Shown here one piece after another: positions 4,896 to 64,000 of a DNA stretch of 64,000 nt. The stretch's first letter is position 1, and every line of letters starts with the position of its first letter. The translations under genes were made by a program, and so were the position numbers. The stretch lies in NCBI GenBank assembly GCA_002441425.1, contig DJWB01000001.1, forward strand, positions 224,602 through 288,601, in the 5' to 3' direction. This DNA is from Patescibacteria group bacterium UBA6241. Lineage in GTDB: Bacteria > Patescibacteriota > Minisyncoccia > Phycocordibacterales > Phycocordibacteraceae. The notes beneath the pieces are model-generated. The model had not been told where the DNA came from and searched no databases. It saw only the letters and a list, made by a program, of their open reading frames with translations.

Positions 4896-6146
4896 ATGAA
4901 CCTAGCAGAAGAGCTCTCGGCACGCGGACTGGTTGAGCACACCTCAGCACCTCTTGAAACTATTCTCAGTACTCCTCGTACTGTATATCTTGGCGTTGAT
5001 CCGTCTGCAGACTCAATGCAGGCAGGGAACTTAGTTGTGGTGCTTTTGATGAAAAGACTTGCAGATGCAGGACACAAAATAGTGCTTCTTGTTGGGGGTG
5101 GAACAGGGATGATTGGAGACCCAAGAGAATCTGGCGAGCGTTCTCTTTCAGATACTAAAACTATAGAACGGAACAAGAAGGCTATACGTGCTCAGATGCA
5201 GCAGATTATCGGGAAGAAAGTAACACTTGTAGACAACGCAGATTGGCTCCTCAAAGTTAAGCTTGTTGATTTCTTGCGTGATATTGGGAAGCATTTCTCA
5301 GTTAACGAGCTGATCAAGCGAGACATAATCAAAAGAAGACTAGAAACACCGGACGAGAGTATTTCATACACTGAGTTTGCATACTCTCTCCTTCAGGGAT
5401 ACGACTACTTGATTCTTAGCAGAGAAAAAGGAGTAGATCTTCAGGTTGGTGCTTCAGATCAATGGACAAATATACTTTCTGGAGTTGACCTCATACGCCG
5501 CAAAGAAGGGAAAGAAGCATATGCGCTAACTTGCCCGTTAGTTACTGACGCAAATGGAAAGAAGTTTGGAAAGTCTGAAGGAAATGCTGTATGGCTTGAT
5601 GGACACAAGACTTCTCCGTTTAGTTTTTACCAGTTCTGGCTTAATCAGCCTGACGAAATGGTTGAGAAGTACCTAAAGATGTATACCTTCATTCCTTTGG
5701 ATCAGATTGAAGAGATTCTAAGAGAGCATCGGAATAATCCAGGAGCCCGCGAGGCTCAGGAAGCACTCGCAAGAAGTATTACGGAACTTGTTCACGGACC
5801 GGGCGCTACGGCCGCAGCCACAGCTGCATCAAGTGCGCTGTTTGGGAAGGAAGGGTTGTCTCATCTTCCTCGGGAGGCACGCTCAATGCTTCTTACGGAG
5901 GCGCCAAACCTTCATGTATTATCAAGCGATATCAAAAAAGGACTTAACGTCCTTGATGTGCTAGCGACAAGTCCGCTTGTTACCTCAAAATCTGAGGCCC
6001 GACGCCTTATTGAAGCAAAGGGTATTTCTCTAAACGGGACTCAAGTATCCGAGGTAGACCAGCTGCTTACAGAGGGAGACTTTTCAGACGGAATAGCGCT
6101 CCTCAAGAAGGGAAAGAGGGATGTGCTCGTTCTTGTTTTGAAATAG
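4896..6146 (+). CDS. tyrS: Tyrosyl-tRNA synthetase with C-terminal S4 domain
   Basis: Global alignment to bacterial TyrRS (DPSADS..., AGHKIVLLVGGGTGMIGDP, KFGKS as KMSKS). The HIGH motif is replaced by MQAGN. Confidence 0.9.
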   Translation: MNLAEELSARGLVEHTSAPLETILSTPRTVYLGVDPSADSMQAGNLVVVLLMKRLADAGHKIVLLVGGGTGMIGDPRESGERSLSDTKTIERNKKAIRAQMQQIIGKKVTLVDNADWLLKVKLVDFLRDIGKHFSVNELIKRDIIKRRLETPDESISYTEFAYSLLQGYDYLILSREKGVDLQVGASDQWTNILSGVDLIRRKEGKEAYALTCPLVTDANGKKFGKSEGNAVWLDGHKTSPFSFYQFWLNQPDEMVEKYLKMYTFIPLDQIEEILREHRNNPGAREAQEALARSITELVHGPGATAAATAASSALFGKEGLSHLPREARSMLLTEAPNLHVLSSDIKKGLNVLDVLATSPLVTSKSEARRLIEAKGISLNGTQVSEVDQLLTEGDFSDGIALLKKGKRDVLVLVLK

Positions 6147-6174: not shown

Positions 6175-6260
6175 GCGTCGGTGGCAGAGTGGTCAATTGC
6201 AATTGGCTGTAAACCAATCGGATTTATCCTACGTAGGTTCGAATCCTACCCGGCGCACCA
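6175..6260 (+). tRNA. tRNA-Tyr (anticodon GTA), long variable arm, encoded CCA
   Basis: Cloverleaf built by hand: acceptor gcgtcgg/ccggcgc, anticodon loop ctGTAaa, 14-nt variable arm, T-loop ttcgaat, 3' acca. Confidence 0.9.
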
Positions 6261-6350: not shown

Positions 6351-6896
6351 TTGGAGGAGGGAACTGTGGAGCTTCCACGACTAGTACTGCTAACAACGCG
6401 AGGGAAGGCAAGTCTCGTTGCAGAACGGGATCGCCTGAAATCTGAGTTGCGGACGATTCGCGAGAATCGGCCGTCGCTTGATGCCCGCTCCCCTGGGAAC
6501 ACCAGCAGCGGGACTCGCATGGCGGGCGAAAATGCCCGGCAAGAGGACCTCTACCTGCAACGCGTAGAGGAAATCCAGCATATTCTGAGCGTTGCGCAAA
6601 CTGCGCCGAAACCGAAAGGGGTAAAGACGGTTCAAATCGGGCACATCATAACTCTGTGTTATGCCTCATGGGTTGAAAAAACCCCTGGGGGTCCGAAGAC
6701 CTCTCGCCGCACGCGCAGGTACTACGAAATCGTTGGCTTCCGCGAGGGAGACTGCGATACGACGCCAGCACGTCTCTGCTACGAGGCGGGCCTGGCGAAA
6801 CATTTCGTGGGGGAATCCAAGGGCCACAAGGTCCTGGTGCGCATGGATGGAGAAGTCCGTCCGGTTACCCTCACCAACATCAAGATGCCCAAGTAG
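6351..6896 (+). CDS. GreA/GreB-family (Gfh/Rnk-like) transcription factor paralog on a GC-rich cassette
   Basis: C-terminal FKBP-like region YYEIVGFREGDC...GLAKHFVGESKGHKVLVRMDGEVRPVTLTNI parallels the GreA C-terminus. N-terminal coiled coil. The tool start is TTG 6351; the likelier start is GTG at about 6366, after GGAGGAGGG. GC-rich with GC3-rich codons, unlike the flanking genes. Confidence 0.55.
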   Translation: MEEGTVELPRLVLLTTRGKASLVAERDRLKSELRTIRENRPSLDARSPGNTSSGTRMAGENARQEDLYLQRVEEIQHILSVAQTAPKPKGVKTVQIGHIITLCYASWVEKTPGGPKTSRRTRRYYEIVGFREGDCDTTPARLCYEAGLAKHFVGESKGHKVLVRMDGEVRPVTLTNIKMPK

Positions 6897-28545: not shown

Positions 28546-29145
28546 TTACGGGAGACGGCCGCCGGTGATGGTGACGACACGCGCACCAGCCCAGCGGCTG
28601 CCACGACCGTCCACCTTGACCAGGTCCACGTCCCAGAAGGGCGTGACATGGAGACAGTGGCCGATGAAGACCAGGCTGATGGCCCGGGCCCCGTTTTCAA
28701 TCAGCAGAAGGTTCGGCTGGCCGTTGTCGCGCAGGATGACGTCTGGCTGTTCAGCGTCGTGCAGCAGCAGACGCGCGAACAGATCGGGCATCTTGTCGGT
28801 GAGATGGGTCTCGCCGGCTTTCGTGCACGCGTGCTCCGCCTTGACGCACAGCTCCGGTCCTTGAAGCGGACCGTCGTCGCAGAGCGGCAGGGCTTTCACG
28901 TTCACCGGCATGGCCAGGAACGGCGAGCAGTTGTCCTCCTGGCTGTACCAGTGCAGAAGAGCCGGCGACAGACGCACTTGCGTCTGCAGGCTCCTCAAGG
29001 CCATGACCCCGTCACCTTCCTTGAAGGTCGGCGACGGCAGATGGGCCCGGTTGATCAGACGCTTTTCGGGCGCGTCAGCCACCAGAGCAAGAGCATTCAT
29101 TAGATTTTCCTCCAGGAATACACTGCGTACGATTAAGTTCGTCAC
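28546..29145 (-). CDS. Hypothetical protein (199 aa) on GC-rich cassette
   Basis: GC3-rich codons. SD GGAGGAAAATCTA precedes the ATG. The antisense ORFs are Arg/Gln-rich and were judged non-coding. No family recognised. Confidence 0.45.
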   Translation of the reverse strand: MTNLIVRSVFLEENLMNALALVADAPEKRLINRAHLPSPTFKEGDGVMALRSLQTQVRLSPALLHWYSQEDNCSPFLAMPVNVKALPLCDDGPLQGPELCVKAEHACTKAGETHLTDKMPDLFARLLLHDAEQPDVILRDNGQPNLLLIENGARAISLVFIGHCLHVTPFWDVDLVKVDGRGSRWAGARVVTITGGRLP

Positions 29146-29239: not shown

Positions 29240-29255
29240 GTCCAAACGTTGTGTA

Positions 29256-43158: not shown

Positions 43159-43283
43159 AAAAAGATACTTCCTCGGAAGATAGTTCGGAATACAATCCCG
43201 CCCATGGCGGGATTGTATTCATTTTCGCGCGCAGACGCGCGGCATTCTCAGACGGCGGGGATACTCTGAAATGCATGGATTTG
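43155..43283. repeat. IR2 left copy (129 bp) containing a 33-bp perfect palindrome (43188-43220) and a GC palindrome (43226-43241)
   Basis: Identical to the reverse complement of 44719-44847. Confidence 0.9.
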
Positions 43284-43330
43284 CACTTCTCTTTCGAGCC
43301 ATACCGTCGCAAGTGATACCATGCAAAGAT

Positions 43331-44875
43331 ATGGCACCGAGATATTTTCTCTACGCGCGCAAAAGTACCGAGCCGGACGACAAGCAAGCGATGAGTATTC
43401 CGGCGCAGCTCGTTGAGTTGCGAGAGTTCGCGCGGAGAGAAAACCTGAATATTGTCAGTGAGTACACTGAATCAAAAAGCGCAAAGACACCGGGACGCGA
43501 TGTGTTTGGCGATATGATGATGCGTCTTGAGCGCGACGAAGCCAACGGAATAATCGCGTGGCATCCCGATAGGTTGGCGAGAAACAGCATTGACGGTGGG
43601 CGCATCATATACGCCGTAGACACGGGCAAGATCGTGTCGTTGCGCTTTCCGACATTCTGGTTTGAACCCACGCCACAGGGTCTATTTATGCTTCAGGTGG
43701 CGTTCGGGCAGTCCAAGTACTATTCAGATAACCTCGGCGAGAACACGAGGCGTGGGATGCGGCAGAAACTGCGTAGAGGCGAGTGGCTCACAAAAGCGCC
43801 GTTCGGGTATACCAACAACCCTAAAACCCGCAATATCGAGCCGGACGCGGTAAAAGCAAAAATCATCGTTCGCGCTTTTGACGAGTACGCAACCGGAAAA
43901 TATACGCTCGTTTCCATGGCGCAGTTTCTCCAAGACCTCGGCATCACGACCAAAGCCGGAACACAGCTCGGCAAAGCGTCCATAAAGCGCATTTTGACGA
44001 ATCGTGCATACCTCGGCTTTACGAAACACCTCGGCGAATTCTTTCCCGGCTCGTTCGCTTCGATTATCACTTCAACGCAGTTTGAAGCGGTGCAAAATAT
44101 CCTCGCAAAACGCGAGCATCGCTACAAACGCCGTCAAAGGAACGATTTCCCGTTTACCAATCTTTTTCGCTGCACTGAGTGTACGTCTATGTACACGGCG
44201 CAATGGACAACTGGAAAATCTGGCGGACGCTATCGCTACTACCGTTGCACGAAAAAGAAAGGAAACTGCACATCAGGCTATGTGCGCGAGGATATATTGC
44301 TCGCGCAAATTCAAGAGCGGATCGAAAGCATCTCGCTTCGCGATAGGCATACGGGCTGGATGTTGAACAAGGTGGACGAGTGGGAGCGCAAAGAAAATAG
44401 TTCCAACGGGAGCGAGATACAAAATCTTTCTTCCAAGATATCAGCGAGCGAAGAGCGCATGGACAAACTGGTTTCCGCATACCTGGACGGCGATATCCCC
44501 AAGCCAATCTATTTGAAGCGGAAAGACGAAATTATGCGCGCTCTCGCCTCGCTGAACGAAGAAAAGAAAGATTTCGAGAACGGAAAGAAAAAGTGGGTCG
44601 AACCCTTGCGTGCGTGGGTTCTAGACACCAAACAAGCCATGGAATTGAGTTCGTCCGACAACTTGCACGAAATCTCCGCTTTCGTCAGGAAGGTCGGAAC
44701 GAACCCCCGTATTGAATACAAATCCATGCATTTCAGAGTATCCCCGCCGTCTGAGAATGCCGCGCGTCTGCGCGCGAAAATGAATACAATCCCGCCATGG
44801 GCGGGATTGTATTCCGAACTATCTTCCGAGGAAGTATCTTTTTGTGACCTCACGGGGAATCGAACCCCGATTTGA
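43331..44875 (+). CDS. Large serine recombinase (resolvase catalytic domain + recombinase domain + zinc ribbon + coiled coil)
   Basis: N-terminal YFLYARKSTEPDD...SIPAQ catalytic Ser region, Cys cluster CTECT...YRCTKKKGNC, and a coiled-coil tail. The ATG at 43331 is internal to the tool ORF. The ORF reads through IR2 and 30 nt into tRNA-Glu before its first stop, so the true C-terminus is uncertain. Confidence 0.8.
   Translation: MAPRYFLYARKSTEPDDKQAMSIPAQLVELREFARRENLNIVSEYTESKSAKTPGRDVFGDMMMRLERDEANGIIAWHPDRLARNSIDGGRIIYAVDTGKIVSLRFPTFWFEPTPQGLFMLQVAFGQSKYYSDNLGENTRRGMRQKLRRGEWLTKAPFGYTNNPKTRNIEPDAVKAKIIVRAFDEYATGKYTLVSMAQFLQDLGITTKAGTQLGKASIKRILTNRAYLGFTKHLGEFFPGSFASIITSTQFEAVQNILAKREHRYKRRQRNDFPFTNLFRCTECTSMYTAQWTTGKSGGRYRYYRCTKKKGNCTSGYVREDILLAQIQERIESISLRDRHTGWMLNKVDEWERKENSSNGSEIQNLSSKISASEERMDKLVSAYLDGDIPKPIYLKRKDEIMRALASLNEEKKDFENGKKKWVEPLRAWVLDTKQAMELSSSDNLHEISAFVRKVGTNPRIEYKSMHFRVSPPSENAARLRAKMNTIPPWAGLYSELSSEEVSFCDLTGNRTPI
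44719..44847. repeat. IR2 right copy (inverted); its last 3 nt overlap the tRNA-Glu 3' end
   Basis: 129/129 identity to 43155-43283 in reverse complement. The palindrome sits at 44782-44814. Confidence 0.9.
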
Positions 44876-44916
44876 TCCGTGAGAGGGATCTGTCCTAACC
44901 GTTAGACGATGAGGCC
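44845..44916 (-). tRNA. tRNA-Glu (anticodon CTC), no encoded CCA
   Basis: Hand-built cloverleaf: acceptor ggcctca/tgaggtc, D-arm identical in layout to E. coli tRNA-Glu, anticodon loop ctCTCac, T-loop ttcgatt. Confidence 0.85.
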
Positions 44917-50616: not shown

Positions 50617-51609
50617 CTACTCGCGAAACAGCAGCGGTCCCGTCACGGTCTGGTCGGTGCCATGGACGATGAGCGAATCAAGCGCCATCCACACTCCGCC
50701 CAGTGGCCTCCACTTGCCAGTGGCAAGATCAAAGCCGTAGAACATCCGATAGATCGCGTTACGCGAGGGCTCATGCAGAAGACGCATGGGCTCCACGAAC
50801 GGCTGCCGGTACATCTGTGACGTGGGTTGACTGCGAATCAGCTTCAAGAGCTGAGGGATGCTGTCCGTATCGCTCTTGCGCATCGGAACACCCCGTTCTC
50901 GCAGTTCCTGCTTCATGCCCTGAGGCAGGTGCACCTTGATGTGCCTGCTTCTGGTCCCCTGTACTGGCTTGAGCACACTCGCGCTTGCGAGCGCGGGCGA
51001 GATGTACCAGTCCAGATCTCCGTCATGTGTGGACGAGACCAGATCCCACCAGCCAAACTGGAGTCCGTACTGTTTGTTCCCCTCGTGAGAGATGGAACTA
51101 ACCGAGCGGTCCTCCAACTCGTGGAATTCGGTTTCCTCGGGCCTGCTTCTCGCGAGAAGCATTCCCTCATGATCTTTCGCTTCTTCAAGCGTCAGACCCG
51201 GACCGAAATGCAGTTCGTCATCGGTCGCCCGATAATTGCTCTGCACCCAGCGAATTGCTGGCCACGACGCTTGAACCCTTTTCAGGTTCTGGGCGAAAGC
51301 CGGATTGCAGAGTCCCGTGAGACCGAGGCCACACGGGCGCTCTTCAATCTCGTAGGGTCTGATCTGATTGTACACGTCCACGACGCAATCAATCCGCACG
51401 ATCAGAGAAGGCACGCCGCAGTGCTTGCCGACCCAGGTGTTCCCCACAGGAAACACGCGAGACCAGTCTTTCAGGATTTCTACGCCCTGAAAGACAGCTT
51501 CTGTGGGCATGTACTCCACCTCCTGCGACAAGTTGGTTCTCCACTCGCCGCCGTGGTGTTTGATAGCTCCCGAAGGTGCTTCAGCACCGGGAAAATCAAC
51601 TCCGTCCAT
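50617..51609 (-). CDS. Hypothetical protein (330 aa) on GC-rich cassette
   Basis: GC3-rich codons. SD GGAAGGAAG precedes the ATG. Bounded upstream by a 20-bp-arm palindromic terminator. No family recognised. Confidence 0.45.
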   Translation of the reverse strand: MDGVDFPGAEAPSGAIKHHGGEWRTNLSQEVEYMPTEAVFQGVEILKDWSRVFPVGNTWVGKHCGVPSLIVRIDCVVDVYNQIRPYEIEERPCGLGLTGLCNPAFAQNLKRVQASWPAIRWVQSNYRATDDELHFGPGLTLEEAKDHEGMLLARSRPEETEFHELEDRSVSSISHEGNKQYGLQFGWWDLVSSTHDGDLDWYISPALASASVLKPVQGTRSRHIKVHLPQGMKQELRERGVPMRKSDTDSIPQLLKLIRSQPTSQMYRQPFVEPMRLLHEPSRNAIYRMFYGFDLATGKWRPLGGVWMALDSLIVHGTDQTVTGPLLFRE

Positions 51610-54178: not shown

Positions 54179-54369
54179 AGCGGCAACACATGTACTCCTG
54201 GAGAGAAATACAATGCTTCAGCAAAAAGGCCCAGCGCAAACCCTGCGAACGGGAGCAACAAAGCTGCTGCAAGAAGGAGCAGTGCTGAAACGGGGTACGG
54301 AAAGAAAAAGAACGAGAGCACCGCACTCACGAGGACGACTATGCGGATCATGGCAGAATAGTTACCCAT
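54100..54369 (-). CDS. mreD: Rod shape-determining protein MreD-like small membrane protein
   Basis: Three-TM 89-aa ORF between mreC and pbp2. Confidence 0.45.
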   Translation of the reverse strand: MGNYSAMIRIVVLVSAVLSFFFFPYPVSALLLLAAALLLPFAGFALGLFAEALYFSPGVHVLPLWAIGGACATAFALLVHRFVKTRIIE

Positions 54370-55133
54370 GTCGTTGAGAAAGGATTTAGATACGGACGAA
54401 TGCCCACTGCAGAGCGTGGAGAAGAAGGATCATTCCCTACTGAGCTAACCACACCCACGGGCGCAAATGAGGAACCGTCTATATATACAAAATCTCCCTC
54501 TGAAACTCCTGACTCTCTTGCTGCAGTTGCAGTAAACGCTCCGCTTCCTTTGCCACTCAAGATAAGTGCCAGTCGCTCTTCCCCAACCCAGCTCGTCGTT
54601 TCGCGTGCGGGTGCTGAGTATAAGAGTACGCGTGCAGTGCGTTCAGTTACGCTTTCAATAGTTCCAAGCGGTACTCCTCCAGGACCAAGTACACGCATGC
54701 CTGGCCCAACTCCTGCGCTCTCTCCCTGATCTAGAACAAACGTGTCGTACGGAGACACTGGCGGACGAACAAGTACTGCTGCAAGTATTTCGTCAGTGCG
54801 TTCTGTGCGTGTGCCGAGCAACTTAGTTAAGTCTTGCACTTTTGCCTGAAGAGCTAGCTGCTCTGCCTTCAGAGCCGTATTTTCTGCAAGAAGCTCATCA
54901 CGCTCTTTGGTGAGGGTGGTTGCATTGCCAAAGAATGAAGTGGCGCTTTGTACATTTGCTGAAAGTGCAGCGCCCGTCTTCCAAAAAGGAGTACCGAGAG
55001 CGGCGAGTGCTCCAGGCGCAACTGCGCGCAGTATAAGAAACAGGACAGCAATACCCACTACAGACAGCGAGGCAGGACCTATCCAGGAATTGCCTATGAG
55101 CGAATTACGTTTTCGGGAGAATTGCGTCTTCAT
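54348..55133 (-). CDS. mreC: Rod shape-determining protein MreC
   Basis: TM segment, coiled coil, and a beta-rich C-domain. Position after mreB. Confidence 0.7.
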   Translation of the reverse strand: MKTQFSRKRNSLIGNSWIGPASLSVVGIAVLFLILRAVAPGALAALGTPFWKTGAALSANVQSATSFFGNATTLTKERDELLAENTALKAEQLALQAKVQDLTKLLGTRTERTDEILAAVLVRPPVSPYDTFVLDQGESAGVGPGMRVLGPGGVPLGTIESVTERTARVLLYSAPARETTSWVGEERLALILSGKGSGAFTATAARESGVSEGDFVYIDGSSFAPVGVVSSVGNDPSSPRSAVGIRPYLNPFSTTWVTILP

Positions 55134-56160
55134 GCATAAATGCGTCCGCCCACGGACGAGGATCTTCTGTAACTACACCAGTACCGCGCACCACAGCAGT
55201 AAGTGGGTCGCTTGCTACATGTACAGGCACGCCGAGCATTTTAGCTAAAAGCTCTGGAAGACCACGCACCAGCGCACCTCCTCCAAATACGGTTACACCC
55301 CGTTCAAGTACATCTGAGAGAAGTTCAGGAGGAGTGTGTTCAATAACATCCTTCATAGCTTCCATAAGAGAATCCATTGAAGGCGCGAGTGCCTCTCTCA
55401 CATGCGCATCGGTAAGCACAATCTCTCTTGGGAGTCCTGTTGCAAGATCGCGGCCACGAATTGCCTTTTCTAGTCCTGTCTCAAGCGGCAGTACCGCACC
55501 AATAGCAATCTTTGTGTCTTCAGCGGTCTTCTCGCCAATAGCAAGCTGGAACTCGCTTCGTACGTAGTCAATGATGTTGTCATTGAACCGATCTCCTGCA
55601 ACCTGCGAACTCTTTGACGCAACCGTGCCTCCGAGCGCAATAACTGCAATGTCTGTTGTACCAGCTCCGATATCAAGAACCATGGTTCCCAATGCTTCCA
55701 TAACGGGAAGTTTTGCACCAATAGCACCTGCCATAGGTTCCTCAAGGATAAATACTTCGCGTGCACCTGCCGTGAGTGCAGCATCACGTACCGCACGACT
55801 CTCCACGTTTGTAACTCCGGTTGGAACTCCCACCACTACACGTGGCCCAAACAGACGAGAACGTCCTCCCTGCGCTTTATTAATGAAATACGCAAGTAAC
55901 TCTTCTGTTACTTCAAAATCAGAGATAACTCCATGCGAGAGAGGACGCACTGCACGAATGTGCGGAGGGGTCTTGCCAAGCATTTGCTTTGCGCTTTGCC
56001 CAACTGCCACCATCTGTCCTGTCTTTTCGTTAACGGTAACAACAGAAGGCTCTGCGATAACAATCCCGCGGCCACGAACATAGACAAGCGTATTGCCGGT
56101 ACCTAAATCAATACCAATGTCAGTTGAGAACAAAGAGTTCTTTGAAAATCGGTTAGCCAT
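55105..56160 (-). CDS. mreB: Actin-like rod shape-determining protein MreB
   Basis: Motifs DLGTGNTLVYV and EPMAGAIGA. Confidence 0.9.
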   Translation of the reverse strand: MANRFSKNSLFSTDIGIDLGTGNTLVYVRGRGIVIAEPSVVTVNEKTGQMVAVGQSAKQMLGKTPPHIRAVRPLSHGVISDFEVTEELLAYFINKAQGGRSRLFGPRVVVGVPTGVTNVESRAVRDAALTAGAREVFILEEPMAGAIGAKLPVMEALGTMVLDIGAGTTDIAVIALGGTVASKSSQVAGDRFNDNIIDYVRSEFQLAIGEKTAEDTKIAIGAVLPLETGLEKAIRGRDLATGLPREIVLTDAHVREALAPSMDSLMEAMKDVIEHTPPELLSDVLERGVTVFGGGALVRGLPELLAKMLGVPVHVASDPLTAVVRGTGVVTEDPRPWADAFMHEDAILPKT

Positions 56161-57509: not shown

Positions 57510-58109
57510 ATGAGACTCTGTGTATCTGTTTCGGGACGCACCGGAACACAGAAGGCTGAGATCCTTTGTGAGCTACACCGGCTTGCTGAGGGCGCGCGAT
57601 TTGCGCGAGGAGACACCGATCGGGATTACCGGCCCGGCGATCTTCTGAACGTTCGCAACTATCTCACCCGGAATTCGTTTGACTGTATGCGTCGGAGTGA
57701 GTCGTTCTTGTGGACGATCCGTCATGACGGCGCAGACTACGGAATGTCGGAAGGCGCGCTTCAGTTTGCGCTTCGCGGGCGTGAGGACGAACCGATTCTA
57801 GCGCTTACGAGTGTGGTGCCGCGTATGGTTCCCGAGCTTCACAAGGCGGTTCACGAGATCACCGGCGATCCTGAATCCTATGTACCGTTTTATGTTCTCT
57901 CCACAGAAGAGGACCTGATGCGGCGCAGATGGACAACGGATGCGGGGTACCGAGACCGCCGGACTGCCGAACGGCTCTTTGAAGAAAAGGACTGGTTCAG
58001 AGAAGCGAGAAACAGCTCTGTTCCCTTCCGGTTCGTTCGCAACAACGTGAGCCCCGAACACACCGCGAGGCGCATTCTAACGCGCCTTGGCATTGAGCCG
58101 CTTTCCTAA
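57510..58109 (+). CDS. Hypothetical protein (199 aa) on GC-rich cassette, possible degenerate P-loop/kinase-like
   Basis: SD GAGGGAGGAAG precedes the ATG. N-terminal VSVSGRTGTQKAEI is loosely P-loop-like. GC3-rich codons. Confidence 0.4.
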   Translation: MRLCVSVSGRTGTQKAEILCELHRLAEGARFARGDTDRDYRPGDLLNVRNYLTRNSFDCMRRSESFLWTIRHDGADYGMSEGALQFALRGREDEPILALTSVVPRMVPELHKAVHEITGDPESYVPFYVLSTEEDLMRRRWTTDAGYRDRRTAERLFEEKDWFREARNSSVPFRFVRNNVSPEHTARRILTRLGIEPLS

Positions 58110-58122
58110 GGGAGGCGGCTTT

Positions 58123-61588: not shown

Positions 61589-61637
61589 AGAGACAGCTTG
61601 AATACTAAAGGCCCGCTATATGCGGGCCTTTAGTATT

Positions 61638-61666
61638 TTGACACTAGTACCTATGTTAGGTATAAT
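61638..61666 (+). promoter_or_regulatory. Perfect sigma70 consensus promoter TTGACA-17 nt-TATAAT
   Basis: TTGACA at 61638-61643 and TATAAT at 61661-61666, read directly. SD GGGGAG and ATG 61702 follow. Confidence 0.6.
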
Positions 61667-61701
61667 ATAGGTATCGTCCGCGCCTTCAGGGGAGAATTCC
61701 A

Positions 61702-62133
61702 ATGCGCACCAGTGTCCTTTCCATTCTTGTTTTCGGTTCCGTCATCGGCGTCGCGGGCATCGCCTGCGCCCAGGATCGTGCGCCGGCCAACATCCAGTTC
61801 GTGCACGAGCCGACCGGCCAGGAGTTTTCTCCGCCGCCGGTTCGGTTCGTCCGGACCAACCTGGCCGAGCAACGCATCGCCGAACGGCAGCGGGCCATGG
61901 ACAACGTGACCTGCGCCTACGAGCACGGCGTCGCCGGCTGCGAACAGCAGCCGTTCGCGAGCGACGAGCGCATTCTGCTCGCCGAGCGTCTGTGCGCGGA
62001 ACGCGTGCATCAGGTCTATTCCTATCGCAGCCAGATCTATCTGACCTGTCTGCGCGAGGAACTGGTTCCCCAGGGCTTCACCGTCCTGGAACCCAGCCAG
62101 GTCGCCGCTTACTACAACGTCGCGACCAACTGA
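61702..62133 (+). CDS. Secreted Cys-containing hypothetical protein (143 aa) on GC-rich cassette
   Basis: Signal peptide MRTSVLSILVFGSVIGVAGIACA. Very GC-rich codons. Terminator at 62155-62186. Confidence 0.45.
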   Translation: MRTSVLSILVFGSVIGVAGIACAQDRAPANIQFVHEPTGQEFSPPPVRFVRTNLAEQRIAERQRAMDNVTCAYEHGVAGCEQQPFASDERILLAERLCAERVHQVYSYRSQIYLTCLREELVPQGFTVLEPSQVAAYYNVATN

Positions 62134-62214
62134 CCGAAACCCGAAAAACAATGAGAGGCCCCCGCAGCGATGTGTGGGGCCTTTTAATTTCTATACAGTG
62201 GAGGTTACTTATAC

Positions 62215-62243
62215 TTGACAAAATATTGTATATGGACTATAAT
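62215..62243 (+). promoter_or_regulatory. Second perfect TTGACA-17-TATAAT promoter
   Basis: TTGACA at 62215-62220 and TATAAT at 62238-62243. Confidence 0.6.
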
Positions 62244-62296
62244 AGTATCAGTAGTGCGGTATGTGAGCCGCTAACCCTCTCTTGTGGAGATCCGAG

Positions 62297-63004
62297 ATGC
62301 GTCCCATCGCACTTGCCCTTTCTGCTTCCATTACTGCCCTGATCGCCTTCCCCGCCCTCGCCGACTGCGACACCGTCGTCTACGGCAGCGTCCAGAGCGC
62401 CTATGTCTACCAGGACATCGGCGTGGTCGCGACCGACAGACCGGTTCTGCAAGCCGGCGTCAGCAAGGTCTGCGGCAAATTCACCTATGATCTGTGGACT
62501 TCAACGGAGCTGTCCACCGACGGCCCCTACGGAAACCGCAGCTACGGTGACGAGCTGGACCTGACGGTCAACTACGACACGGAAATCAGCGACACCCCGA
62601 TCGGCGTCGTTAAAGTCCAGGTTTCGGCAGCGTACTACATCGCCGCCGACTTCGGGAACGTGGACGACGACTTCGGCCAGGTCTATGTGGACTTCGGTCG
62701 GCCCATTCAATTCGGGAGCGCTACGGTCACTCCGTATGTGCGCCCGATGCAGTGGCTCGGCGTGGAGACCATCCAAGACACCACCCTGGTGCGTGCGGGC
62801 GTTCGCTTCAACATCCCACTGGATCAGAACTGGTCTGTCCGTGGAGATGCTTCGCGCACCTCCGACCTCACGCATGGGACGGGCGTCTTCCGCGGCGACG
62901 TGACGGCAACCCGAGATATGGGAAGCTGGAACCTCTCGCTCAGCGCGAAGTTCACCGAGGCCACGCAAACGGTCTTCGGGATCGGCGCAAGTCGCGTCTT
63001 CTGA
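62297..63004 (+). CDS. Secreted beta-rich hypothetical protein (about 235 aa) ending in ...RVF, on GC-rich cassette
   Basis: Signal peptide MRPIALALSASITALIAFPALA. Alternating hydrophobic pattern and a C-terminal Phe, as in outer-membrane beta-barrels. The tool ORF starts at GTG 62282. Terminator at 63034-63069. Confidence 0.45.
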   Translation: MRPIALALSASITALIAFPALADCDTVVYGSVQSAYVYQDIGVVATDRPVLQAGVSKVCGKFTYDLWTSTELSTDGPYGNRSYGDELDLTVNYDTEISDTPIGVVKVQVSAAYYIAADFGNVDDDFGQVYVDFGRPIQFGSATVTPYVRPMQWLGVETIQDTTLVRAGVRFNIPLDQNWSVRGDASRTSDLTHGTGVFRGDVTATRDMGSWNLSLSAKFTEATQTVFGIGASRVF

Positions 63005-63071
63005 ACCAACGACGAGGTGCAGTAATGAAAGAAAAGGACCCCTTCGCTTCCGAGCGTCGGGGCCTTTTTAA

Positions 63072-64000
63072 TTACTTCTTTGAGATAATACTCTTCTTAT
63101 ACGTATCTAAATGTTTGAGTGCTACTCCTGTTCCGCGCGCTACACAATAATAGGCATCCTGCGCGAGCTTGGCCTCAACGCCCGTACGGCGATACACAAG
63201 CTCTGGAAGATTGCGGAGCTGGGAAGTTCCTCCGGTTAGGATAATGCCGTTATCAATAATGTCTGAAGCCAATTCTGGAGGAGTATCCTGAAGCACTTTG
63301 CGCACTGCATTCATCATCTCGCGCAACTCCCTATTCATTGCCTGTACAACTTCGTTTGTGCGCAGCTCAACAGTGCGTGGAAGTCCAGAAACTAAATCAC
63401 GTCCTTTAATAGACATGGTGAGCTCCTCAGTAACAGGGACAGCAGAGCCAATCTGAATCTTGATCTCCTCAGCAGTCTTGTCTCCAATAGCAAGGTTGTA
63501 CTGCTTCTTTACGTAATCAATGATGGAGCGGTCTAGCTTGTTGCCTGCAATCTTAACTGAGGTGGACGCCACGATACCTCCTAGTGAGATCACGGCCACA
63601 TCAATAGTGCCGCCACCAATGTCCGCAACCATGCGCCCCAATGCTTCCTGAATAGGAATACCTGCACCAATAGCAGCGAGGATTGGTTCTTTGACGACGT
63701 ACGCATCAGCTGCACCTGCTTTAACTGCCGCTTCAATAACAGCGCGCTTCTCAGTTGAAGTTACACCTGCAGGAACTGAAATGAGCACCGTTGGCTTAAA
63801 TATGTTTTTCCCAAGTGCCTTTTTAATGAAGTACCTGAGCATTGCTTCAGTAACGCGGTAGTCAGCAATAACACCGTCTTTCATAGGGCGGTATGCCTGA
63901 ATAGAGTCAGGAGTCTTCCCCACCATTGCTTTCGCTTCAGCACCAATTGCGAGTACTTTGTTGTTTTCAGTTGAAACCGCAACAACAGAAGGCTCGTTGA
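63072..64000 (-). CDS. Second MreB/Mbl-family actin homolog; N-terminus lies beyond the window end
   Basis: Motif EPILAAIGAGIP and co-linear with MreB. The frame is open to 64000. Confidence 0.8.
   Translation of the reverse strand, partial: NEPSVVAVSTENNKVLAIGAEAKAMVGKTPDSIQAYRPMKDGVIADYRVTEAMLRYFIKKALGKNIFKPTVLISVPAGVTSTEKRAVIEAAVKAGAADAYVVKEPILAAIGAGIPIQEALGRMVADIGGGTIDVAVISLGGIVASTSVKIAGNKLDRSIIDYVKKQYNLAIGDKTAEEIKIQIGSAVPVTEELTMSIKGRDLVSGLPRTVELRTNEVVQAMNRELREMMNAVRKVLQDTPPELASDIIDNGIILTGGTSQLRNLPELVYRRTGVEAKLAQDAYYCVARGTGVALKHLDTYKKSIISKK

Follow-up and report, generated by a model that had tools for sequence, protein, structure and literature searches.

Two mobile gene cassettes with consensus promoters in a Patescibacteria genome, one of them encoding a predicted 12-stranded outer-membrane-type beta-barrel

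A 64,000-bp stretch of the genome of Patescibacteria group bacterium UBA6241 (contig DJWB01000001.1, positions 224,602 to 288,601), called the window below, was analysed. Near its right end, two short cassettes follow each other on the + strand, and they were designated c1 and c2 after the open reading frames (ORFs) that they carry. Comparison with related sequences indicated that both cassettes are natural, mobile gene units of this ultrasmall bacterium, and structure prediction assigned the c2 product to a new, unnamed family of outer-membrane-type 12-stranded barrels. The explanation that we favour, and consider fairly probable, is that c1 and c2 are two autonomous monocistronic units, probably very highly transcribed, that c2 encodes an abundant envelope channel protein, and that the modules have been exchanged between lineages.

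The left edge of the high-identity cassette block was the terminator hairpin of the upstream gene p154 (T0, 61607–61637, +; GGCCCGC-TATAT-GCGGGCC and a T-run). It was followed by a perfect sigma70-type promoter, TTGACA-17-TATAAT (P1, 61638–61666, +; 12/12), 35 nt before the start codon of c1, a 143-aa ORF for an exported-type protein (61702–62133, +, from the ORF list; GC content at third codon positions [GC3] 0.81). The c1 terminator (T1, about 62157–62190, +) consisted of GGCCCCCGCA...TGTGGGGCC and TTTTAATTT. A second perfect promoter of the same type (P2, 62215–62243, +; 12/12) stood 53 nt before the start codon of c2, a 235-aa ORF for an exported-type, 12-stranded transmembrane-type beta-barrel by prediction (62297–63004, +; GC3 0.79) with a Cys24/Cys59 pair and a C-terminal Phe. 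The c2 5' leader (62244–62296, +) contained the motif CAGT..GCGG-N-CCGCTAACCC. Shine-Dalgarno sequences (GGGGAG for c1, GGAG for c2) were located 7–9 nt before the starts, both ORFs opened with ATG-CGx, and a hairpin with a GC stem and a T-run lay 3' of each. Between the convergent c2 and mreB genes, an A-tract, a hairpin and a T-tract (T2, about 63033–63071, not assigned to a strand) formed a probable bidirectional terminator.

Exactly two TTGACA-17-TATAAT sites were found in the window, both on the + strand and 577 bp apart, while 0.02 were expected from dinucleotide-preserving shuffles; two perfect sites occurred in 0 of 100 shuffles. P1 and P2 were also the only window sites scoring at least 11/12. 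Promoters of 10/12 stood upstream of tRNA-Tyr and greA, which suggests that the organism uses the sigma70 consensus. A preliminary description of this DNA had reported two exact consensus promoters with 17-nt spacers, each followed by a Shine-Dalgarno sequence, a GC-rich ORF with a signal peptide and a hairpin terminator. All of these elements were present (the signal peptides as sequence features: MR start, hydrophobic core and AxA-type site), so that the units could be described as autonomous promoter-ORF-terminator cassettes for proteins with export signals. Repetition of an identical promoter module, which had also been raised, was not found in the window: there were only the two perfect sites, and their spacer sequences were unrelated. 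The two promoters are thus not copies of one module, each having apparently reached the consensus independently, and a duplicated promoter module was ruled out.

Near-consensus promoters were a constant feature of the c2 gene. In all 11 loci scanned (the window and 10 others), c2 was a stand-alone unit with a promoter of 10–12/12 located 42–71 nt from the start codon and a predicted downstream hairpin (11/11). The c2 promoter was perfect in the window, L008 and L021, and P1 was perfect in L005 (17-nt spacer) and L025 (18-nt spacer) and 11/12 in L007. Six perfect promoters were present in 165 kb of distinct loci, and each of them stood upstream of a c1 or c2 gene. Instead of pointing to engineering, such promoters can be explained as conserved elements that normally drive a family of abundant exported proteins. 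P1 also carried a palindrome, TACCTA-N3-TAGGTA, over its -10 element, with a further TAGGTA 5 nt downstream (61648–61677); it was kept in L005, not in L025. The palindrome could be an operator, or may be due to chance, since L025 lacks it.

The N-terminus of c2 had the features of a signal peptide (MRPIALALSASITALIAFPALA, then DC): about 20 residues formed a hydrophobic core (mean Kyte-Doolittle 1.9), and the putative cleavage site fell between ALA and DC. The protein did not qualify as a lipoprotein: the sequence ...PALADC has Asp at -1 and no lipobox ([LVI][ASTVI][GAS]C), and in c2 relatives the Cys stands 1–7 residues past the AxA site. AlphaFold2 (AF2) on a five-sequence c2 alignment gave a model with a predicted local distance difference test score (pLDDT) of 80.4, a predicted template modelling score (pTM) of 0.73 and twelve long beta-strands, which form a closed antiparallel barrel with an even strand number. 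The strands showed a dyad repeat, with one face of mean Kyte-Doolittle +1.43 (6 of 69 residues charged) and the other of -1.31 (21 of 69 charged). The predicted protein combined the marks of an outer-membrane-type barrel, namely a hydrophobic lipid-facing surface with a polar lumen, an N-terminal signal peptide and a C-terminal aromatic residue. The C-terminus read ...ASRVF, and F or W was the last residue in 20 of the 24 aligned family members. The top Foldseek matches of the model against PDB were OmpG and autotransporter beta-domains, followed by the EstA barrel (16.9), Tsx (16.7), VhGalP (16.7), FapF (16.1) and NanC (16.0); the top fold matches were 12-stranded outer-membrane barrels. The earlier suspicion that the second protein, ending in SRVF, is beta-barrel-like was thus borne out by structure prediction and fold search.

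Homology searches, proposed earlier as a check, gave a divided answer: c2 itself matched none of the known families searched, and some distant relatives reached models of outer membrane proteins. No Pfam family matched c2 even at E<=0.1, and there was no NCBIfam or PHROG match. A word-indexed search with c2 returned just four relatives and a scan of GTDB representatives matched just the L005 genome, whereas a profile search covering 1.84 billion cluster representatives returned 169 representatives at E<=1e-3, 47 of them at E<=1e-30. Members of the family share the signal peptide and two cysteines, one just past the point of cleavage and the other near residue 59; they also have the motifs GDE.D and TPY.R and end in Phe or Trp. 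A profile of 83 members weakly matched the OmpG sequence (E 0.0018). A few distant relatives reached Pfam Gcw_chp, Autotransporter or OMP_b-brl; Gcw_chp (PF09694) was matched by 7 of the 83 members, all distant (best E 6.6e-10), and P0147 and P0155 were among the relatives carrying it. KdgM was absent among the Pfam families matched by the 83 relatives. The c2 family thus shares its fold, and perhaps a superfamily, with known outer membrane proteins.

Genomic context was recovered for 12 distinct c2 loci. In 8 of the 12 (the window, L005, L007, L011, L017, L021 and the near-identical L022–L024), the gene lay between holB (-) and mreB (-), and none of these 8 holB-mreB loci lacked it. The c2 proteins were 94% identical to the window copy in L005 and 35–48% identical in L007, L011, L017, L021 and L022–L024. 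Homologues of 35–48% identity at the same holB-mreB slot imply that the c2 family has long resided in this Patescibacteria clade, where it is conserved and presumably expressed at a very high level, and that c2 is not a stray foreign gene. L006 and L014 shared a second context, in which a SET gene, a membrane protein gene and c2 were followed by AspRS and NUDIX; in L008, the divergent upstream gene resembled the GyrB N-terminus by eye. The window has two mreB paralogues (54348–56160 and 63072–64000; about 48% identical), with mreC beside the first, and the c2 slot was always beside the second.

The c2 leaders of the window (62244–62296), L005, L007 (4428–4478), L006 (7935–8000) and L020 shared the motif CAGT(C)..GCGG-N7-9-CCGCT(A/T)(A/C)CCC, which persisted though the c2 proteins of L007, L006 and L020 were only about 45% identical to that of the window (L005, 94%). 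Leader hairpins were predicted in every locus scanned. When the leaders were searched against Rfam at E<=1, the two matches returned were below threshold, lay on the opposite strand and were attributed to chance; no covariation was seen in the motif. A conserved stabilising 5' hairpin is not claimed, as the folding energies were at shuffle level in 9 of the 11 leaders.

In L007, a third cassette followed c2 (L007:5335–5760, +) and had been missed by the gene finder. Its 141-aa product (c3) has a signal peptide (MRLALFALTAVAAAALSFNAHA, then Q) and ends in ...YGFGFTRTF; the cassette has a GC3 of 0.71 (C3 0.44, G3 0.27), a promoter-like TTGACG site (9/12) and its own terminator. No Pfam, NCBIfam or PHROG match was found for c3, which may be a small barrel-like protein.

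The c1 protein began with MR, after which came a hydrophobic stretch some 20 residues long (mean Kyte-Doolittle 2.1) and a putative cleavage site between ACA and QD; the sequence ...GIACAQD contains no lipobox. Mature c1 has four cysteines, the conserved motif F[VI]HEP.GQ.F.PPP.R.VR (FxHEPxGQxFxPPPxRxVR) and a conserved C-terminal half. Homologues were found only in four lineages, the window included, with identities to the window copy of 95% (P0005, L005), 92% (L025) and 42% (L007). There was no Pfam, NCBIfam or PHROG match and no relative in IMG/VR. The single-sequence AF2 model, with a helical C-terminal part, was too weak (pLDDT 62) to serve for a fold search. In place of c1, the ENA gene caller had annotated a 119-aa gene on the minus strand (61651–62151), a frame that was stop-free in all four c1 lineages. 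That frame is open because of the GC-rich codon pattern, and it was rejected as a shadow frame, since the substitutions concentrate at third positions of the + frame, in which c1 has a ratio of nonsynonymous to synonymous divergence (dN/dS) of 0.14–0.31. Coding on the + strand is supported by the pattern of substitutions and also by the promoter, the Shine-Dalgarno sequence, the signal peptide and the orientation of the terminator. L025 has c1 without c2, and L011, L017, L021, L024, L006 and L014 have c2 without c1; the two are therefore independent units. The c1 product may be a small secreted protein with disulfide bonds, whose gene joined the c2 slot independently and only in some of the lineages.

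The modular nature of the cassettes was seen most directly in L025, a close relative of the window (RRF 96% and MreB 97% identical). There, the c1 terminator hairpin joins directly onto the sequence that lies past the c2 terminator in the window (L025:5160–5230 versus window 62176–62190 and 63059–63075). The junction falls inside a direct repeat of 14–16 nt, GGGGCCTTTT(T)AATT, made by the 3' ends of the two terminators; the left copy is the 3' end of T1 (GGGGCCTTTT) and the right copy lies in T2 (GGGGCCTTTTT). The c2 cassette, consisting of P2, leader, c2 and T2, is thus an indel of about 884 bp (62184–63067, +), and the repeat suggests deletion or insertion of c2 via recombination between terminator ends.

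Nucleotide identity between the window and L005 was 0.66–0.88 across most flanking genes, rose from about 0.8 to 0.94–0.99 at about 61600, dipped in the inter-cassette spacer and was 0.90–0.98 through c2. Synonymous divergence (dS, Nei-Gojobori) between pairs of the window, L005 and L025 was 0.07–0.29 for c1 and 0.21 for c2, compared with 1.2–3.2 for the flanking genes M50, RRF, holB, p154 and mreB. Nonsynonymous divergence (dN) between the window and L005 was 0.022 for c1 and 0.183 for holB; between the window and L007, the order was reversed (c1 0.48, holB 0.39). Purely synonymous constraint was rejected as the cause of the low dS, because dN shows the same deficit of about 10-fold relative to the deep comparison. 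With dS and dN both about 10-fold lower than in the flanks, the cassettes have an ancestor far more recent than that of the surrounding genomes. This indicates, from sequence divergence, that the cassettes were recently exchanged between lineages, or that alleles were replaced at a conserved slot. The cassettes had dN/dS values of 0.12–0.49 in the + frame, which implies purifying selection. The earlier proposal of a very recent acquisition holds in part: the low dS and dN relative to the flanks in sister lineages agree with it, whereas a one-off foreign gain does not fit homologues of 35–48% identity holding the same slot.

The origin of the locus was considered next to these data. Engineering, which the preliminary description had offered as a second possibility, does not agree with the distribution of the sequence. 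The window was identical to the 608-kb ENA metagenome contig k141_820366 (ERZ27315056) over the 7.7 kb compared, and two short Logan read-assembly contigs of other runs (SRR943318/9) spanned c1-c2-mreB with 0 mismatches. Diverged versions were found in NCBI metagenome-assembled genomes labelled Patescibacteria, namely L005 (GCA_018826405.1; c1 95%, c2 94% identical), L025 (GCA_018826145.1; c1 92%) and L007 (GCA_040384045.1; c1 42%, c2 45%), and also in JGI metagenomes. The same junctions in independent assemblies, together with diverged alleles, show that the locus is natural. The window genes (many aminoacyl-tRNA synthetases, MurG, FtsW, two MreB, MreC, RRF, holB) fit a small-genome bacterium of the Candidate Phyla Radiation (CPR). 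Proteins with 90% identity or more to the RRF, GreA, L9 and FtsW of the window carry the names Patescibacteria group or Candidatus Paceibacterota, in line with a Paceibacterota-type organism. An engineered construct, assembly chimera or contamination could be suspected from the two closely spaced exact promoters and the sharp composition change at the cassette edges; given assemblies from different studies with the same junctions, natural alleles at 94%, 92% and 42–48% identity, mutually unrelated promoter spacers, and a region in which no vector-like sequence was noticed on reading (no vector database search was made), its probability is practically negligible. Phage morons are autonomous promoter-gene-terminator units of deviant GC inserted between conserved genes, and the cassettes resemble them in modular anatomy, composition contrast and presence or absence between close relatives; a serine recombinase also occurs elsewhere in the window. 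They differ in being chromosomal between core genes of conserved order, with no phage genes nearby, no phage homologues (no c1 or c2 relative in IMG/VR, no PHROG match) and a c2 slot conserved across deep divergence, and a moron or prophage remnant is extremely improbable. Integron cassettes, which are promoterless ORFs with attC sites next to an intI integrase, differ as well: both units here carry promoters, and their neighbours are holB, p154 and mreB instead of an integrase gene; attC sites measure 57–141 bp, while the hairpins at the cassette edges are terminator-type, with GC stems of 7–9 bp and T-runs.

Recent foreign DNA from a GC-rich diderm, for example a proteobacterium, taken up without an established function in the recipient, would account for the GC3 of about 0.8 against 0.43 in the neighbours, for signal peptides and an outer-membrane-protein fold that look proteobacterial (with Gcw_chp matches of distant relatives), and for the low dS between lineages. 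However, the closest homologues examined (35–48%) occurred in small-genome Patescibacteria-like contexts wherever the flank sufficed, mostly at the holB-mreB slot, the composition of c2 fits its genome in L006, dN/dS is below 1, and conservation of the gene extends to its AT-rich consensus promoter and to the leader motif. We therefore regard this origin as very unlikely.

The compositional contrast pointed out earlier was clear. GC content was 0.60–0.70 in the c1 and c2 ORFs versus about 0.47 for the window, and GC3 was 0.81 (c1) and 0.79 (c2) versus 0.42–0.46 in the neighbouring genes. Among c2 homologues, GC3 was 0.55–0.85, with flanking-gene medians of 0.36–0.78. The excess was 0.2–0.35 in moderate-GC genomes; c2 equalled its genome in composition on the 62% GC contig L006, and lay slightly under its flanks in the GC-rich L024. 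It consisted mainly of C3 enrichment and A3 depletion, G3 being up modestly at four-fold sites, with no consistent shift at two-fold purine-ending codons in the c2 family. Codon bias of highly expressed genes in general was not supported as the cause, because L9, the one ribosomal protein gene in the window, had an ordinary GC3 of 0.43 and the third positions of GreA were ordinary too. Candidate causes are gene-specific selection on the mRNA, GC-biased gene conversion if the slot is a hot spot of recombination, and repeated replacement by alleles of relatives rich in GC. A gene-specific GC3 excess across genomes with GC3 of 0.36–0.83 bears on the debate between amelioration and GC-biased gene conversion.

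Under the favoured explanation, the consensus sigma70 promoters would give very strong constitutive transcription. The products would be exported by Sec and, having no lipobox, cleaved by signal peptidase I (c2 after ALA). The c2 protein would be stabilised by a disulfide between the conserved Cys24 and Cys59, and would form a pore with a polar lumen in some layer, of lipid or protein, that lies beyond the cytoplasmic membrane. The c2 family, of KdgM/NanC/Tsx-like architecture, would be the long-standing occupant of the holB-mreB slot with its near-consensus promoter. Bounded by terminator hairpins with short direct repeats at their 3' ends, the cassettes could be gained or lost singly, and the present alleles would have been exchanged between lineages long after the lineages split.

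Several observations weigh against this explanation. The promoter consensus is the sole sign of high expression. The GC3 excess of the family is not accounted for, L9 having an ordinary GC3 as noted above. Leader hairpin energy was no better than that of shuffles in 9 of 11 c2 leaders (window z -0.58). No evidence of functional pairing of c1 and c2 was found in the loci compared, where each occurs without the other. Furthermore, Patescibacteria are described as monoderm, without outer membrane, outer membrane proteins, TonB or PilQ (PMC6744442, PMC7137472, PMC11665869), which leaves a c2-type barrel with no known destination membrane or insertase; the CPR likely lost the second membrane (bioRxiv 10.1101/2022.09.22.508938). 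No Omp85, POTRA, Lpt or lipopolysaccharide (LPS) genes were seen in the annotated sequence, which, as 64 kb plus flanks of a contig of at least 608 kb, is about 10% of the genome and settles nothing.

We propose, tentatively and with more doubt than confidence, that the clade conserves and probably massively expresses a 12-stranded barrel that belongs either to an unrecognised outer layer or, as a porin, is planted in a Gram-negative host. Taken singly, each of the two destinations is rather unlikely. As an exported effector, c2 would insert into the outer membrane of a Gram-negative host via the beta-barrel assembly machinery (BAM) of the host and the C-terminal Phe signal, and would open a nutrient conduit or permeabilise the host, with c1 co-secreted. 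The strong promoter is consistent with this, and so is a barrel of outer-membrane type, ending in an aromatic residue, in cells for whose phylum no outer membrane is reported (PMC6744442). Exchange between lineages, variable presence among relatives and rapid divergence of the protein (window-L007 dN 0.47, dN/dS 0.38–0.49) would suit a gene for host interaction; Patescibacteria are epibionts that need host nutrients (PMC11665869). However, the locus is linked to no delivery system, and Sec alone would release the protein outside a monoderm cell, whereas BAM works in the periplasm of the host. A position beside mreB that is kept over deep divergence is also more like that of a housekeeping envelope gene. 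Alternatively, the cell itself may have an outer layer, which could be an outer membrane, true or residual, or a toga-like protein sheath, with c2 as its major porin or structural protein. This second possibility, about as doubtful as the first, is favoured by a conserved, single-copy gene at a fixed locus by cell-shape genes with promoters of 10–12/12 in 11 of 11 loci, by a second barrel-like protein ending in Phe in L007, and by the Thermotogae sheath, which is built of beta-barrel arrays (bioRxiv 10.1101/2022.09.22.508938). Against it, neither microscopy nor genome comparisons have revealed an outer membrane in Parcubacteria or in other CPR bacteria (PMC7137472, PMC6744442), and BamA, Lpt and LPS genes were not seen in sequence covering that tenth of the genome.

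If c2 is an abundant membrane barrel, either the assumption that CPR bacteria lack an outer layer needs revisiting, or the protein is a candidate for the means by which an epibiont breaches the host envelope, a step that is very poorly understood in ultrasmall epibionts (PMC11665869). Should it be a porin for the host, the lineage exchange, presence/absence polymorphism and odd GC3 would reflect a symbiont-host arms race. The unexpected part, which is not the one stressed in the preliminary description, is a conserved mobile outer-membrane-type barrel family with a gene-specific GC3 excess in a phylum believed to be without an outer membrane. As the c2 family is small, easily synthesised and refolded, and clear in its structural prediction, the question is directly testable. 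In addition, the locus offers a clear case from nature of terminator-bounded modular gene units moving between lineages.

Compared with known systems, c2 was like KdgM/NanC and Tsx, the 12-stranded proteobacterial outer-membrane channels, in fold only: it was 6–12% identical to them, with no detectable sequence homology and no Pfam KdgM or Tsx match. It differs from them in its conserved Cys pair, in belonging to a phylum considered monoderm, and in its mobile GC3-rich consensus-promoted cassette. Gcw_chp (PF09694/TIGR02001) comprises predicted proteobacterial outer-membrane beta-barrels of unknown function; the N-terminal pattern Y..QD.G....PV.Q.G of c2 was similar by eye, but c2 and its close relatives gave no match even at E<=0.1, so that the relation is superfamily-level at best. 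Among the major outer-membrane protein genes of Gram-negatives, ompA and lpp of E. coli are each transcribed singly from a very strong promoter, have an untranslated leader, end in a strong terminator and encode abundant exported envelope proteins. The layout of c2 is alike, with expression deduced from its promoter and a leader hairpin at shuffle level; unlike in E. coli, no outer membrane is known in its organism.

Further features were noted elsewhere in the window. A large serine recombinase (43271–44916; Resolvase, Recombinase and Zn_ribbon_recom; 534 aa, GC3 0.60) overlapped at its 3' end with tRNA-Glu(ctc) on the opposite strand, and this region is probably an integrated mobile element. 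The 10/12 promoter upstream of tRNA-Tyr (6175–6260) was at 6138; the tRNA was followed by a GC-rich ORF (6351–6896; GC3 0.64, no Pfam match), possibly a small island at the tRNA. Three further GC3-rich ORFs had no Pfam match and no signal peptide, namely 28546–29145 (-; GC3 0.78), with a 10/12 promoter at 29244, 50617–51609 (-; 0.69), and 57510–58109 (+; 0.60), with a strong terminator at 58095–58121. These three may be foreign or mobile cassettes as well, though of a type unlike c1 and c2.

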